A program made the position numbers and the translations under genes. From a virus (lineage: Duplodnaviria > Heunggongvirae > Uroviricota > Caudoviricetes), in IMG/VR virus record IMGVR_UViG_3300031920_000341, positions 16,267 to 80,266 of that record: a stretch of DNA of 64,000 nt. One strand, given 5' to 3'. Positions 556-54,126 of this stretch are shown piece by piece. Below the pieces are notes generated by a model. It was not told the DNA's origin. It saw only the letters and a list, made by a program, of their open reading frames with translations, and ran no database searches. The number at the start of each line of letters is the position of its first letter. Position 1 is the first letter of the stretch.

Positions 556-2172
556 TTATTTTTTATCTTCTACTTCATCAATAATTATACAGTCAAGTGT
601 TAAAAATATTTTTGCAACTGATACTGCACTTTCAATTGCAAGCCTAGTTACTTTGGCAGGATCAAGAATATGCATTTTATACATATCACCAAATTTCCTG
701 TTTTTAGCATCATAACCAAAGTTAACATCTACTGATTTACTCATTTCAAGTCGAACAAGTTCTTTGTTCTCTCCAGTATTGGCCACTATATGCTCCATAG
801 GACTCATTAGAGCGTCCATAACTATAGTCATACCCGTTTTTATATCATCAGTATCTTTATCACGATATAGGTTGTCTATGTGCTTTTTAAGTAGATATGA
901 ACAATGATAATATATTGTACCGCCACCAGGAACCACACCTTCTTTAAGTGCTGATTTTGCAGCATGTAATGCATCATCAATTCTATCACCCTGTTCGTAA
1001 ATTTCCATTTCTGAATTTCCACCAACTTTAATTGTAACAGCCGCGCCGTTTAATTTTGATATACGTTTTTTAAGTGATGCTTTTGGTTGTGCGTTTTTTT
1101 CTTCCTTCATATTACTGTTAAGTTGTGCAATACGTTCTTTAACACGTAATTTATTCTTTTTTTCTTTTATAAGAACTGTTTCTTTTTCAGAAATTACAAT
1201 TCTATCAACTGAACCAAGTATTGATAAATCTTTTATTTCAGCAAGTGATATTCCTGTTTCTGCTCCAACAACTGTACCATCAATAAATGCAGAAATATCT
1301 TCAAGTGCTTCAAGTTTGCTTTTAGCAAATCCAGGTGATTGTATAAGTGCAATTTCTAATCCATTCTGTAATCTATTTAAAATTATTGTTTGTGCCAACC
1401 TGGTTTCAAAATCTTCTGCAATTATAATAATGGGACGTTTCTCCATTTTAACTGTTTCCAAAATTGGTAACAATTCACTAAGTCTGTCCATCTTATCAGC
1501 ATACAATAATACAATTGCATTTGTAAATTCAGCTTTACCTGTTGACATATTTGTAATAAAATATGGTGAAAAATATCCTTTTTCAAACATCATACCTTCT
1601 TTTATTTCCAATTTTGTTTCAGGTTCTACGCCCTTTTCAACATCAACAATACCATCAGCGCCAACACGTTTAATTGCTTCTGCTATTAATTTACCAACTG
1701 GTTCATCATGATTTGCAGATATGATAGCAATATCTTCAAGTAATGGACTATCTTCATCAATTTGAATTGCGTTTTCTTCTACCATATCAGTAACAAACTT
1801 TAATGCTTGATCCATACCATCTTTAAGATGTATTGGATTGGCTTCAAGATTTAATTGTTTCCTGATTTTTTGAATTAAAGCAGTTGCTAGAACAGTTGCT
1901 GTTGTAGTTCCATCGCCCGCATCAAATGCCATTTTTGCTGTTACGTTTTTGATAATATTTGCCCCAATATTTTCACCTGGGTCTTTTAAAGTAAGTGCAT
2001 TCGCAACAGTTACACCATCTTTTGTTACATGTGTTAATCCTCTGTGTATCGCAACATGGCGTCCACCAGGCCCAAGAGTGCTAGATACAGCAGTATATAA
2101 TTTTTCAATTCCATTATATACTACATTTTTTGCTTCTTCTCCTGTTAAAAAAGTTTTACTATTATTACTCAT
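556..2172 (-). CDS. groEL: Chaperonin GroEL (phage-encoded)
   Basis: TLGPGGR, TKDGVTVA, AGDGTTTATVLA and EGVVPGGG motifs; 538 aa; no GGM tail. Confidence 0.97.
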   Translation of the reverse strand: MSNNSKTFLTGEEAKNVVYNGIEKLYTAVSSTLGPGGRHVAIHRGLTHVTKDGVTVANALTLKDPGENIGANIIKNVTAKMAFDAGDGTTTATVLATALIQKIRKQLNLEANPIHLKDGMDQALKFVTDMVEENAIQIDEDSPLLEDIAIISANHDEPVGKLIAEAIKRVGADGIVDVEKGVEPETKLEIKEGMMFEKGYFSPYFITNMSTGKAEFTNAIVLLYADKMDRLSELLPILETVKMEKRPIIIIAEDFETRLAQTIILNRLQNGLEIALIQSPGFAKSKLEALEDISAFIDGTVVGAETGISLAEIKDLSILGSVDRIVISEKETVLIKEKKNKLRVKERIAQLNSNMKEEKNAQPKASLKKRISKLNGAAVTIKVGGNSEMEIYEQGDRIDDALHAAKSALKEGVVPGGGTIYYHCSYLLKKHIDNLYRDKDTDDIKTGMTIVMDALMSPMEHIVANTGENKELVRLEMSKSVDVNFGYDAKNRKFGDMYKMHILDPAKVTRLAIESAVSVAKIFLTLDCIIIDEVEDKK

Positions 2173-2507
2173 AAATCATGTTTTTTTTTAAAGTATTCGT
2201 TTTCATTACGTAAAAATTGAAAATTTTTTTCAATTGTTTTGCAGTTATCTTGGAAACTGTTAACCAATTCCGGTGTCAAATAAAACCATTCTCCTCGTTT
2301 ATTTTTATGACGAAGCATATTATGCATCGCTGTCTCGATCATTATAGCAAATTCACTTTCGTATTGATCTACTACAATTAAATCGGAATCATTCCCTGTT
2401 TGTAATTGTTTAAGACGTTTAAGACGTTGTGGATCTTTTCTTGTAAATCCTATCTTATATGTTTCTTCATCGTTTTCTTTTTTAGCGATTAAATATATGT
2501 AAGGCAA
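2169..2507 (-). CDS. GIY-YIG-like T5orf172/MUG113 family nuclease
   Basis: YIYLI...YKIGFT...RLKQLQTGN...E..MH...RGEWF pattern. The likely start is TTG at 2507, just after the polymerase stop; the ORF-track start at 2573 overlaps the polymerase gene. Confidence 0.8.
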   Translation of the reverse strand: MPYIYLIAKKENDEETYKIGFTRKDPQRLKRLKQLQTGNDSDLIVVDQYESEFAIMIETAMHNMLRHKNKRGEWFYLTPELVNSFQDNCKTIEKNFQFLRNENEYFKKKHDL

Positions 2508-2511
2508 TTCA

Positions 2512-4230
2512 TTATTCTGTTTTTTCTTGTGATTCGTTAGCTTCTTGTTCAATTTCTTCAGGCGGCGGAGCATCTGCTACAATAAATGCATCATTTATTA
2601 TATGTATAGCACCATTTACTGAATAGTTTTTAATTCGTTTCAAAAAGTCAAGTGATAATTCATATGTAAATTTACTATATGTTTTTTTAACAACAGGTGC
2701 AAGGGTTTCATTATTCATAATAAAACCATATGTTCCCTTTTCTGGTTTATATGCTTTTATTTTTTTACTAAACTCAACATAAACTTCTTTATCCATTTCA
2801 GTAAGTTGACTAAAAAATTCTGTTTTTTGTTTTTTCTTAAGTTGATCGTTTCTCTTACGTTTAATATACTTTGCTAATTCAAATTTAGGAACAACTTCAG
2901 ATAATAAACCATATGTCGATACACTTGCTATATATTCATCTTCATGTTTTTTTGGAACCTCAAGTAATGAATTAAGAATATAAGGATATAAAATCCTTGG
3001 TATTTCTTTATATTCAAGTGTTTCATTATTTATTACATATAATGGATATAAATCATCATCATTAATTGTTCTTTTAACTTTTGGTGCATTATATTTAACT
3101 GAACGTTTTAAACTACGGTCAACAGCCTGTGAGCCCATTGCAACTAATAATTTATTTACCGGTTCAACTACAGTCTGAAAAAATTGCTCATTGTAATCAA
3201 CAGGAAATGCAAACTCAATTGGATAATTACCAGGAATGTATCCAAATACATTCATTTCTTCATTATCAGAATGCTTTGCATAATAAAATTTAATTTTAGC
3301 GCCTTCACGTATTTTATAGTACTTTCCAATTTTAGTTTCATTTATCATAAAATTATAATATAAAGAAGCTCTACTATTAATAGGCATTCCTTTTGGAATT
3401 TCTAATACTGTATCATCTGGTACGTATTCATTATACTTCTTTACAAATTTATTGAAACTAATATCTTCTACATCATTATTTTCATAACCCTTACGCATTT
3501 TCTTAAGATGAGGTATTATATCTTTTTCAAGAATGGTTTCCTTACCTTTATCTAACATGATTTCAACAAGCTTACGTTGTTGATCACGTGCCCACTTTGG
3601 TATAGATGCTTGTGCTAATCCGATTCCACGTGCTTTGATTTTATATTTAGCTGTTAAATCCCGGTGATCAGCAATTTTAATAACGTAATGTTTCTTACCT
3701 GTCCATATTCCAGAATATGAAATATTTTCAAGTGCGAAGTTCATATGGTTTTCTGTATTGTAACTACTCGAATATTCTTTAAATGCATTATTAAGAAAAC
3801 TTGAAAATCTAAAATCAATTATCTTTTTATTAAATTCAATTTGTTTGATATTTGATAATTGATAATTTTCTATTGAGGAATATGCTAAATCAAAATTAAT
3901 ATATGTTGAATCAGTATCTGAATAAATTGCACCCTCTATTGATGGTTTATTAATCTTTAAATGAGATATACCCAAATGTTCATGTAATTCTTTATCAAGA
4001 TGCCATCTTTCACGGAAATAATAATTAACTGCAGCAATACTATATTTAATAAGATCTTGTCCTTGTAAAGTAATACTCTGTGCAATATTTCTATCATGAA
4101 AATTAAACCACTTATTACCAAAAGCACCATAGATACTATTAATAATAATCTTTATTGCATATTGTTGTTGATTAAGATACGCAATACGTTTCTTAATATC
4201 CTTTATTCGATCTTCTTTAGATTGTTCCAT
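2512..4230 (-). CDS. Family B DNA polymerase, C-terminal subunit (second fingers helix, palm, thumb, extension)
   Basis: Motif B KIIINSIYGAFGN, SITLQGQ, motif C IYSDTDS, KKHY. Lacks the exonuclease domain and motif A. Confidence 0.92.
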   Translation of the reverse strand: MEQSKEDRIKDIKKRIAYLNQQQYAIKIIINSIYGAFGNKWFNFHDRNIAQSITLQGQDLIKYSIAAVNYYFRERWHLDKELHEHLGISHLKINKPSIEGAIYSDTDSTYINFDLAYSSIENYQLSNIKQIEFNKKIIDFRFSSFLNNAFKEYSSSYNTENHMNFALENISYSGIWTGKKHYVIKIADHRDLTAKYKIKARGIGLAQASIPKWARDQQRKLVEIMLDKGKETILEKDIIPHLKKMRKGYENNDVEDISFNKFVKKYNEYVPDDTVLEIPKGMPINSRASLYYNFMINETKIGKYYKIREGAKIKFYYAKHSDNEEMNVFGYIPGNYPIEFAFPVDYNEQFFQTVVEPVNKLLVAMGSQAVDRSLKRSVKYNAPKVKRTINDDDLYPLYVINNETLEYKEIPRILYPYILNSLLEVPKKHEDEYIASVSTYGLLSEVVPKFELAKYIKRKRNDQLKKKQKTEFFSQLTEMDKEVYVEFSKKIKAYKPEKGTYGFIMNNETLAPVVKKTYSKFTYELSLDFLKRIKNYSVNGAIHIINDAFIVADAPPPEEIEQEANESQEKTE

Positions 4231-4280: not shown

Positions 4281-4605
4281 TTATAACTTTTTGTTTATGG
4301 TTTCGGTATGAAAATTTTGTTCTTTGTATATTTTCATACGATCATCAGCATGTTTTTTTGAATATTTACCAAAATCATCAATGATATCAATAACAGTAAG
4401 ATATTTCTTTGTTTTGAATTTACGAAGGCCACGACCAATTGATTGACGGATTAAAGTATATGCTTTATATGATTCAGTAAATATTATGTAAAATAAATTG
4501 CTAACATCAATACCTGTAGAAAATGTACCGTCAATAAGAGGCAACCATATTAGTTGCCTCTTTATTAATTTCCTTTATGTTTTTATGAAATGTAACTTTT
4601 GCCAT
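4281..4605 (-). CDS. uvsW: UvsW helicase C-terminal fragment (motifs V-VI), interrupted by a frame change at 4533-4530
   Basis: 4605-4531 encodes MAKVTFHKNIKEINKEATNMVASY*. Skipping TGAC gives GTFSTGIDVSNL...LIRQSIGRGLRK...VIDIIDD, matching T4 UvsW VASYGVFSTG...QTIGRVLR. Confidence 0.75.
4531..4568 (-). promoter_or_regulatory. RNA hairpin enclosing GAGG, ATG-GTT-GCC-TCT-TAT and the TGA stop
   Basis: TTAATAAAGAGGCAAC-TAATATG-GTTGCCTCTTATTGA: 10-bp perfect stem, extendable to ~16 bp with one bulge and G-U pairs. Confidence 0.75.
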
Positions 4606-4665
4606 GTCTTTTATATTTTTTAATATCTATATCAGTCATGATAAGTTTTTTAATTATATATTTAC

Positions 4666-6087
4666 TTATTTATATGAGTTTATCCAAGAATCTAATATAT
4701 CATCACCAACTATTATATCTTTAGCATATTTTATTTTCCCATTAGTTAATTTAACGTTTGTATATTGATTTACTTTTATTTTAATATCATTTAATTCAAT
4801 AATTGTAACTAATTCTAAATTATCCATAATATTTATATAATCGTCTCTATCATTTTCATCAACATTACCATCAATATAAAAAACATTAGTATTAGATTCT
4901 TTTAAATTTTGATATAGTTTATAACCATACTTATCTTTAACATTATTGAAAAGAAATAATTTATTGTTTGGTAATGCGCTAGCTAGTTTTTTTATGAATT
5001 CCATTCTAAGTGGATGCTTTATTATTGTTTGTCTTTCAAAATCAAATAATTCTCCGGCAAATTTTATTCTAGCATCGCCTTTAAGTTCATTACCTTTTGC
5101 TTTGAATTTCATATAATCATTAACTAATTCATCATTCTTTGGATATTCTAATATAATACGTTTAACTGTTACTTCTGGTGCATATCCATCCTTTATAAGT
5201 TGATGTGTTTCATATTCATATACAAATGGCCCAAAGAATTTCTGTACTGTAAGGAAACTTGATTTAGTTCTATTTTCAATTAAAGTTCCAGATAATCCAA
5301 ATCGTGTATGTAAAGTCCCACATGAATTAAGAATATTTTTAATACTATCACCTTTAATTCCATGTGCTTCATCTACACCAATATGATATACTTTTTTAAA
5401 ATCTTCTTTTTTTCTTCTAAGTAAACTTTGATATGTACTTATAACAATTTCGGCTTCATCAAATTTCTTTTGATTAAATTTACTTTTACCGCCAAAATAT
5501 GCTATTTTAATTGGAACTGATCCATTATTATAATTTTGTGTAAATCTTTTATATGTCTGTGATGATAGGCCTTTCTTAGGTACAACAATTAACATTTTAT
5601 GATTAACATCAATTTCTTTTGTCACTTTAAGATACATTGCAATTATAAAAAATATTACTGTTTTACCCGCAGCTGTAGATAAATCAGCGGCGGCATATTT
5701 ATATTTGAGTAAATTATATGCTGATTCATATTGGTAGTATCTTAATTCTTTTACATCAGTACCTTTAAAAATTGTACTAAGAAATTTATCGTAATGTTCT
5801 TTTGTTATATCACGCATAAATTCTTTTATTCCATCAATTTTAACTGTATATTGTGGTCTATCATGGAAAAATTTTAATAATTCATGCCATAAACCAAATG
5901 GTAGTTTATAACCCACAAAGAATCTATCCCATCCATCCCATGCACCTGATCGATATGCTGGATCAAAAAAGAAACTATCTCTTTCTCGTTTAAAAAAGCT
6001 TCTTAATTCCTGTAATGCATGATCATTAGGATATGAAGTTAAGATAAGGTGTTTGTAATCGTTTGTTGTTTTAAATACAAATTCCAT
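4666..6087 (-). CDS. uvsW: UvsW SF2 helicase, N-terminal fragment with C-terminal Hint-like tail
   Basis: WDGWDRF, LRYYQ (Q motif), TAAGKT (Walker A), VDEAH, GLSGT, FYIDGNV. Ends before motif V with a ~45-aa tail ...VKLTNGKIKYAKDIIVGDDI. Confidence 0.92.
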   Translation of the reverse strand: MEFVFKTTNDYKHLILTSYPNDHALQELRSFFKRERDSFFFDPAYRSGAWDGWDRFFVGYKLPFGLWHELLKFFHDRPQYTVKIDGIKEFMRDITKEHYDKFLSTIFKGTDVKELRYYQYESAYNLLKYKYAAADLSTAAGKTVIFFIIAMYLKVTKEIDVNHKMLIVVPKKGLSSQTYKRFTQNYNNGSVPIKIAYFGGKSKFNQKKFDEAEIVISTYQSLLRRKKEDFKKVYHIGVDEAHGIKGDSIKNILNSCGTLHTRFGLSGTLIENRTKSSFLTVQKFFGPFVYEYETHQLIKDGYAPEVTVKRIILEYPKNDELVNDYMKFKAKGNELKGDARIKFAGELFDFERQTIIKHPLRMEFIKKLASALPNNKLFLFNNVKDKYGYKLYQNLKESNTNVFYIDGNVDENDRDDYINIMDNLELVTIIELNDIKIKVNQYTNVKLTNGKIKYAKDIIVGDDILDSWINSYK

Positions 6088-52728: not shown

Positions 52729-54126
52729 TTATTTTTCTAATTCTCTAAGTTCTTCTTCAAGATCTTTTATTTCATTTTGAACTTCAACCCTTAATCCATA
52801 TAGATAAACTAAAAGTTCTTTTGTAACTGAGTCGAATTCAAGTGTAAATACAGTATTGTTTTTTGTTATTGTATATGAACCAGGCATTAACTCATTTAAA
52901 TTAATTTGATCTGCTTGTCCAAGCAGACTATCCATTGATATATTGAATTGTATTTGAATATTTGGATACATTGATGAAAAGTCAAAACATACAATATTCC
53001 TATAAAATCCAGGTATCGGTTCTTTTACATATGCTCCTTTATATTTACTTTTATCATCTGTTTGAAATTTATTTTCTTTAGTTGTATGTAGATTACGATC
53101 AAGTAATCTTTTTATAATCATAAGCTCAGTCATAAATACTGGTCCAAATATTCTACTTATCTCTGTTCGAGCAATTGCAGAAATAGCAAATGATGCTTTT
53201 AATTGTTCTAAATCTTCATCAATCAATTGGGGTAATATCGTATCTATTATGTTATACTTTAAAAACTTAAAATGTTTTTGTTGAAGTTCATAAAAACTTT
53301 CACTATGTGTCAATTTCTTAATTCCAAGCACCCTGTTCGACGTATAATCTAAAGAGTGGTTTTCCATATCATCTAATGGTTTAAACTTCTTCAGTGCGTC
53401 TATATAATCAATAATACCCATATGAATAGGTATATTCTCTCTACCGAATGTTTCATGCGAAAGTAAATACTTTGTAATATCAATTTTATTATGCTTTACT
53501 GTTCTATTGTAAATGGTTTGCCAGTCAAAATTAATAACATTCCATCCGGTTAAGAAACCTATCTTAGGCATAAAATATTGAACAAATGCCGTAAGTAAAT
53601 CCTTTTCTGTTTTAAAGTAAGTATAGTATAACTTAAACTTTCTATTAAATGGTAAAAAGTATTCATTTACTTCAACCTCAAGTTGAATTCGTTCTTGATC
53701 ATCTAAATATTTTGTAGTTAATACATAAATATTATCACCTTCTACTAATGTAAGTGCATTAATTGGACAAGGTGCAATTTCAGGATCAGGAAATTTATTG
53801 CTTTTATCAACTTCAACTTCAATATCTACATAAAATACTTTTGGTGGTGCAACCGAAGATATTTTATCCCAATCATCTTGTGTAAATCGTTCATGCATTA
53901 TTTCTTCAATACGATAACGATTTAAATAATGAGTTCTCTTTTTAGAAACATAACGTTTATCCCAATTTCTACCTTCTGGTGGTCCATCACCAGCTGTATG
54001 AGGTACCCATTCGAATAAATCTTTTGATGTTATCTTTTTCTTAATATAATCAAGATTTCCTTCTTCATCATAATATGATACTAAAAGAGCTTCATGATTT
54101 TTATTATATTCTGCACCTACGAGCAT
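52729..54126 (-). CDS. Family B DNA polymerase, N-terminal subunit (3'-5' exonuclease, motif A, first fingers helix)
   Basis: ExoI YVDIEV, ExoII GWNVINFDW, SLDY, ExoIII YNIIDT, YKGAYVKEP, motif A FDFSSMYPN. Ends LRVEVQNEIKDLEEELRELEK*. Confidence 0.93.
   Translation of the reverse strand: MLVGAEYNKNHEALLVSYYDEEGNLDYIKKKITSKDLFEWVPHTAGDGPPEGRNWDKRYVSKKRTHYLNRYRIEEIMHERFTQDDWDKISSVAPPKVFYVDIEVEVDKSNKFPDPEIAPCPINALTLVEGDNIYVLTTKYLDDQERIQLEVEVNEYFLPFNRKFKLYYTYFKTEKDLLTAFVQYFMPKIGFLTGWNVINFDWQTIYNRTVKHNKIDITKYLLSHETFGRENIPIHMGIIDYIDALKKFKPLDDMENHSLDYTSNRVLGIKKLTHSESFYELQQKHFKFLKYNIIDTILPQLIDEDLEQLKASFAISAIARTEISRIFGPVFMTELMIIKRLLDRNLHTTKENKFQTDDKSKYKGAYVKEPIPGFYRNIVCFDFSSMYPNIQIQFNISMDSLLGQADQINLNELMPGSYTITKNNTVFTLEFDSVTKELLVYLYGLRVEVQNEIKDLEEELRELEK

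Follow-up and report, generated by a model that had tools for sequence, protein, structure and literature searches.

A uvsW gene in three pieces

The window analysed here, a stretch of 64,000 nucleotides, belongs to a 208-kb T4-like phage record that has 29% GC, is 78% complete and is read with genetic code table 11. Its uvsW helicase gene lies on the minus strand in three pieces, an N-half, a leader and a C-half. The N-half (4666..6087, 473 aa) carries UvsW_N, DEAD/ResIII and the helicase motifs through IV, and ends before motif V. Its last ~50 aa (4666..4818) form an element-derived C-terminal tail, which resembles the start of the Hint domain and has no Cys or Ser at intein position 1. After a spacer of 60 nt comes the leader ORF (4531..4605), which has 24 codons, beginning with its own ATG (4605) and finishing with Ala-Ser-Tyr-UGA, and encodes the first strand of motif V. 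The leader start is overlapped by a micro-ORF of 18 codons (4583..4639, minus strand), which sits where relatives have an HNH endonuclease gene and is possibly a remnant of that gene. The C-half (4281..4529) encodes the remainder of motif V and motif VI, and it is the sole copy within this 78% complete record.

What lies between the leader and the C-half? The proposed take-off codon UAU (Tyr, 4534..4536) is followed by a coding gap of 4 nt, UGA and C (4530..4533); landing is proposed to occur on GAC, the final three bases of this gap. The resume codon GGT (4529-4527) comes next, and from there the frame reads Gly-Thr-Phe-Ser-Thr-Gly and continues for 82 codons to the stop at 4281. An RNA hairpin (4531..4568) spans the end of the leader, with 4568-4553 as its 5' arm and the Val-Ala-Ser-Tyr codons as its 3' arm, and compensatory changes are found in it. 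The initial annotation of this DNA had placed TGAC (4533-4530) between TAT (4536-4534) and GGT, followed by an open frame through motifs V and VI, and both points are confirmed on the minus strand. It had also described helicase motif V as broken by 4 nt. The break holds, but Val-Ala-Ser-Tyr is no part of the main helicase ORF, whose stop is at 4666; these codons end the separately started leader. The upstream split of uvsW and its homing-endonuclease origin were not mentioned there. Logan contig L003 (run SRR28373708) is identical to the window across 6471 nt and was possibly built from the same reads.

Some features of the surroundings should be recorded. An octamer of the T4 late promoter type, TATAAATA, lies over the N-half stop (4667-4674, minus strand), as it does in about seven relatives. 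It is not claimed as a late promoter, since it is not enriched in this genome (80 occurrences against a mean of 104). The family B DNA polymerase is also found as two far-apart pieces on the minus strand (2512-4230 and 52729-54126), the C-half directly after uvsW and the exonuclease half ~48 kb off. After the polymerase half come phage GroEL and a gene with a T5orf172-family nuclease domain (556-2573, minus strand). For the 127 ATG genes of the record, an SD-like motif is found before none and A at -3 before half, which suggests a Bacteroidota host. The 14 tRNAs of the record include neither a suppressor tRNA nor a Tyr tRNA. An alternative genetic code for the loci with a gap was considered and rejected, coding density being normal under table 11.

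Gap junctions and hairpins in related phages

Is the break peculiar to this phage? By pattern scans and tail-based look-ups, 44 non-identical gap junctions, including that of the window, were gathered from diverse phages, several of them close kin. Every one has the same layout: a leader ending Ala-Ser-Tyr (Phe once), then UGA or UAG (44/44), and Gly after the gap. The gap is 4 nt at 14 loci, 5 nt at 2, 6 nt at 5 and 7 nt at 20, and lengths of 11, 14 and 17 nt also occur, so that 4 and 7 nt are the commonest classes and all three frames are represented, in 19 gap sequences (types) across the family. Judged from the sequences, the break is real and conserved. The initial annotation had proposed looking in relatives for conservation of the stop-containing gap and for covarying hairpin pairs, and both were found in the 43 further junctions. 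When relatives were chosen by the tail alone, 9 of 11 had a gap, while none was found among ~75 uvsW genes chosen by C-half similarity; thus the gap is a minority allele. No cultured phage with a gap was found, and the cultured split alleles examined are all gapless. A scan of the phage record for other sites with a hairpin, a Tyr or Phe codon and a stop gave five weaker matches.

The stop codons in the gap are informative. The first gap codon is never UAA, which terminates 234 of 366 ORFs (64%) in these loci; the search pattern behind about 25 of the loci allowed UAU-UGA only, and therefore the bias rests on the ~18 others, none of which has UAA. In two junctions (L170, with an 11-nt gap, and L295) the codon that precedes Gly in the resume frame is UAA, and three (L187, L191, L193, the gap being 6 nt in L187 and L193) have two consecutive stops in the gap. 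Decoding at these five must therefore resume at Gly or later. With a stop right before the resume codon, a fixed +1 shift or readthrough is excluded for the family, and at these loci frameshift, readthrough and upstream restart all fail.

A quick tree of the C-half, built on 91 columns, has gap alleles scattered among intact ones, with 13 changes, of which only 2 are forced by strong branches. Where dS can be measured, the C-half has a dN/dS of 0.04-0.29 between gap alleles, much as in pairs of a gap and an intact allele. These ratios indicate that the C-half is under purifying selection and, together with its being the sole copy in the record, that it is expressed.

The hairpin is a second common feature. 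That of the window (4568-4531) has 17 pairs and one bulge, with z = -3.5, and 1 of 200 shuffles was equally stable. For the 39 nt ending at the take-off codon, folding energies range from -13.9 to -26.7 kcal/mol at 41 gap loci and from 0 to -11.7 kcal/mol at 78 continuous junctions. The gapless split alleles, which are among the continuous junctions folded, lack the hairpin. Recoding with synonymous codons gave equal stability in at most 7 of 200 cases, and at 33 of the 41 gap loci the first base of the Tyr/Phe take-off codon is the last base of the stem. In two ungapped alignments 99% and 98% of cells are paired, with 3 and 5 compensatory columns, counts that are inflated by the relatedness of the sequences and lie above all shuffles and slid controls. 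Such patterns argue that the hairpin is selected and tied to the gap. The initial annotation had described the hairpin with the TGA included in its pairing; the hairpin stands, but pairing of the stop is true of this copy only and is not a general trait. At six loci (L005, L109, L187, L191, L195, L196) a strong SD-like motif, absent in the window, lies a few bases 5' of the hairpin; it could contribute to the positioning of landing if the stem is looped out.

The end of the gap is also biased. In 15 of 18 gap types the last triplet is the first best match to the take-off tRNA from +4 onward, compared with a mean of 3.9 and a maximum of 10 in 20000 shuffles, which is not a true probability since the loci are related. 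Among codon boxes, UAY fits the last gap triplets better than any other. The sole Phe take-off (L185) has a UUU landing 14 nt later, a Phe/Phe covariation seen at this one locus only. The match is usually imperfect: of the 19 gap types, 3 have a fully cognate landing codon and 3 a poor one (GUC, ACC, UGA), and GAC in the window makes 2 of 3 pairs with the take-off tRNA. A perfect UAC is present at +9 in the window, and landing there would give a dead product. The bias could be due not to selection but to decay of an original host Tyr codon.

How the gap might be crossed

How is the C-half translated? We consider hairpin-driven translational bypass the best reading, and on these comparisons a likely one: a cassette would have split uvsW, and the ribosome would hop the gap. 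The scenario may be as follows. A mobile homing-endonuclease cassette would have entered uvsW just before motif V and split the gene, with a tail added to the N-half, and a new start and a leader to the C-half. A short stop-containing gap would have been left within the motif V codons, probably destroying the cutting site of the cassette itself, by analogy with T4 mobA/gene 60, and the nuclease gene would later have been lost in the window phage. Ribosomes starting from ATG 4605 would melt the hairpin as they translate and would pause once peptidyl-tRNA-Tyr sits on UAU and the weak stop occupies the A site. Behind the paused ribosome the hairpin would then re-zip, and its closure would push the ribosome ~4 nt forward. 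We infer a step of this size because the last pairs use the E-site codon and the first P-site base, so that completing the stem must move the ribosome; it matches the shortest gap seen. The tRNA would re-pair at the first acceptable triplet, GAC in the window, and decoding would restart at GGU. The predicted outcome is a C-half of 106 aa in which motif V is exact and which would assemble with the N-half.

Two published observations bear on such a push. The 5' stem-loop of gene 60 has been proposed as a motor that closes 4 more pairs (PMC5009743), and a hairpin of 12 bp placed upstream makes 70S ribosomes slip forward, with an effect only when RF2 is lacking (PMC6321510). The initial annotation had suggested a hop from UAU to GAC that gives the exact motif, and with a conserved, covarying hairpin at 43 further junctions this is still the best reading, with the product a prediction. 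In the family as a whole, resumption is independent of frame and occurs at a triplet that does not overlap the take-off codon; the window allele presumably behaves alike.

Could a simpler frameshift serve instead? UGA-C is the A-site context of the prfB +1 frameshift. At the window's 4-nt allele, and perhaps at the 7-nt alleles too, a hairpin-stimulated +1 slip at UAU-UGA-C is compatible with the frame, provided that an extra Asp in motif V is tolerated; 4 and 7 nt are the most frequent gap classes, and upstream hairpins are able to stimulate +1 shifts on 70S ribosomes (PMC6321510). On the other hand, after a +1 move from UAU the tRNA would have one pair on AUU, compared with two on GAC, and the site has neither an SD nor a slippery sequence of the prfB type. 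In the continuous junctions examined Gly always follows Tyr/Phe directly, and gaps of 5, 6, 11, 14 and 17 nt are left unexplained. The prfB-like slip named as an alternative by the initial annotation thus fails for the family on gap lengths; at the window allele it is possible, and we consider it unlikely. If the gap were lost in RNA, neither its length nor the frame would matter. The polymerase might be pushed past template bases by a terminator-like hairpin, and the hairpin followed by a short U-rich stretch does look like a weak intrinsic terminator; or a nuclease and a ligase might excise a micro-intron. Against this, the gap always opens with an in-frame stop and closes with a Tyr/Phe-like triplet that tracks the take-off codon. 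The 3' boundary base is not conserved, no guide-like sequence or second copy with joined exons was found in the genome, and 4 bases are too few for known self-splicing or bulge-helix-bulge introns. The junction has no Rfam family, the sole match in that search being a chance snoRNA far under its threshold. Removal in RNA is accordingly quite improbable in our judgement. A group I or group II intron was rejected outright, with no Rfam intron match, a spacer of only 60 nt and a gap of 4 nt.

Two explanations without any crossing are much less probable still. Ribosomes might stop at UGA and restart nearby, at TTG 4544 or ATT 4535, so that the helicase would be in three pieces with one strand supplied by the leader peptide. 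TTG 4544 is in the frame of the C-half, and the gene already functions in pieces in relatives, but this codon lies within the hairpin stem, the gap classes share no conserved start codon, and at five loci the Gly codon is preceded directly by a stop, with no ATG there; such a restart is very unlikely. The long branch of the window's C-half would suit a pseudogene or an assembly error. The second assembly is identical, however, the 4-nt gap recurs in 13 other junctions, motifs V and VI are intact under purifying selection, and the 78% complete record holds no other copy, so that this explanation too is hardly credible. Both had been listed as alternatives in the initial annotation, and they are disfavoured by the conservation, the identical contig and the want of a conserved start. 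Translational bypass driven by the hairpin is left as the reading to be compared with known systems.

Comparison with known systems and the mobile element

To our knowledge, evidence for programmed bypassing in bacteria comes almost entirely from T4 gene 60 and its homologues, and only a few cases of very short natural ribosome hops are known. In the T4 gene 39/mobA/gene 60 cassette an endonuclease splits the gene, extensions are added, and a 50-nt gap is bypassed (bioRxiv 10.1101/2022.08.31.505936; PMC5009743); helicases are not mentioned in the former report. From its layout, the uvsW element would work like this cassette and is not a member of that family. In both, a free-standing homing endonuclease (HNH in the uvsW relatives) splits a replication gene, C- and N-terminal extensions are present, the coding gap comes early in the downstream piece, and a stop directly follows the take-off codon, UGA or UAG in 44/44 uvsW junctions. 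A 5' stem-loop that refolds behind the ribosome, proposed for uvsW, and possible loss of the nuclease with the gap retained are further likenesses. The host gene, however, is uvsW and not the topoisomerase II large subunit, the gap is 4-17 nt rather than 20-50, and take-off is from Tyr/Phe rather than Gly/Asp. In addition, uvsW landing is mostly near-cognate, take-off and landing are not matched to the same tRNA, and the take-off codon lies at the 3' foot of the sole hairpin, there being no take-off stem-loop that would carry this codon in a 5' arm. A mini Shine-Dalgarno 5-7 nt before the landing codon was not found in the window, and the genome avoids SD motifs.

Shorter hops offer another comparison. 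The synthetic stop-hops of E. coli and the byps of Magnusiomyces mitochondria also cross a slow A-site codon in a short hop, the byps tolerate imperfect landing matches, and the 6-nt uvsW alleles, like stop-hops, spend 9 bases on one amino acid (PMC5009743). The uvsW sites differ in being natural and conserved, on bacterial ribosomes and equipped with a dedicated upstream hairpin; no natural in-frame stop-hop was known to the 2016 review (PMC5009743). A weak A-site stop and a duplex 5' of the P site, by which the ribosome would be pushed forward, are shared with prfB (RF2) and with hairpin-stimulated +1 shifts (PMC6321510), but unlike prfB, uvsW has no slippery CUU-U and no SD 3 nt upstream, and its gap length varies. 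These junctions might make up an independent and widespread class of natural bypass, in which one upstream hairpin acts as both ruler and motor and carries bacterial ribosomes past a stop over 4-17 nt with little landing match, natural in-frame stop-hops included, efficiently enough for a phage helicase in several host groups; this broader proposal we hold to be evenly balanced. A literature search, whose coverage is incomplete, gave no report of recoding in uvsW. The junctions provide a separate natural series, with 19 gap sequences and one conserved hairpin within ~100 bases. With this series two points become open to test: whether take-off needs more than the refolding of a 5' stem, and how closely the landing codon has to match. 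The series further suggests that homing endonucleases repeatedly evolve recoding as target concealment, protection of the target site by the gap being a plausible analogy with T4, and that gene callers cut these helicases short.

What kind of element carries the gap? The same C-terminal tail is found on ~20 other, truncated UvsW proteins, and an HNH homing endonuclease gene of 277-326 aa, lost in the window phage, lies between tail and leader in most relatives. Genes fractured by split inteins are similar in having an endonuclease gene between two halves with Hint-like ends (PMC2677866), but the uvsW element lacks splicing residues, and the paper on fractured genes contains no uvsW and no coding gap. 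Compared with the start of the Hint domain, the tail shows a weak fold likeness only (TM ~0.5). None of the split-intein residues looked for (Cys/Ser at position 1, the block B His, a terminal His-Asn with Cys/Ser/Thr) is conserved in the leaders or in 20 tails, and the identity as a split intein was rejected for that reason. In the window the tail is Hint-like and Cys-less (4666-4818, minus strand), and the leader begins like an intein C-half (4531-4605, minus strand). Tail and leader are fused in frame in two relatives, P0170 and Vibrio phage 1.244.A, and may serve as a non-splicing coupler of the two helicase halves. An AlphaFold model of the naturally fused P0170 is confident for the helicase and uninformative for the insert (pLDDT ~50).

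The same split point, tail and leader are found in cultured phages, Dickeya phage LIMEstone1 (HE600015) and Vibrio ackermannviruses (OZ195882), which unlike the window have neither gap nor hairpin. LIMEstone1 has an HNH endonuclease between the halves, termed a putative intron in a report that does not mention recoding (PMC3296691). From these cultured phages and the two in-frame fusions it follows that the split form is viable and that the gap is separable from it. The reverse case is also seen: L196 (2126-2432, minus strand) has an unsplit, full-length uvsW with the hairpin and a 7-nt gap, and neither tail nor endonuclease, which indicates that the bypass signal can persist alone. In L170 (4199-5158) an in-frame UGA interrupts the endonuclease gene while the helicase gap cassette is retained. 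At three loci (L021, L032, L063) an unrelated ORF of ~270 aa, non-HNH by its start, lies upstream of the leader, and the tail match is doubtful; since this ORF precedes the leader, the two uvsW halves may not be coupled in these phages. The motif V coding sequence also recurs in short copies a little upstream of the endonuclease gene: in L111, L050 and L108 they come right behind the N-half stop, and in L005, L109, L172 and L174 they are on the reverse strand; they are possibly an operator for self-repression.
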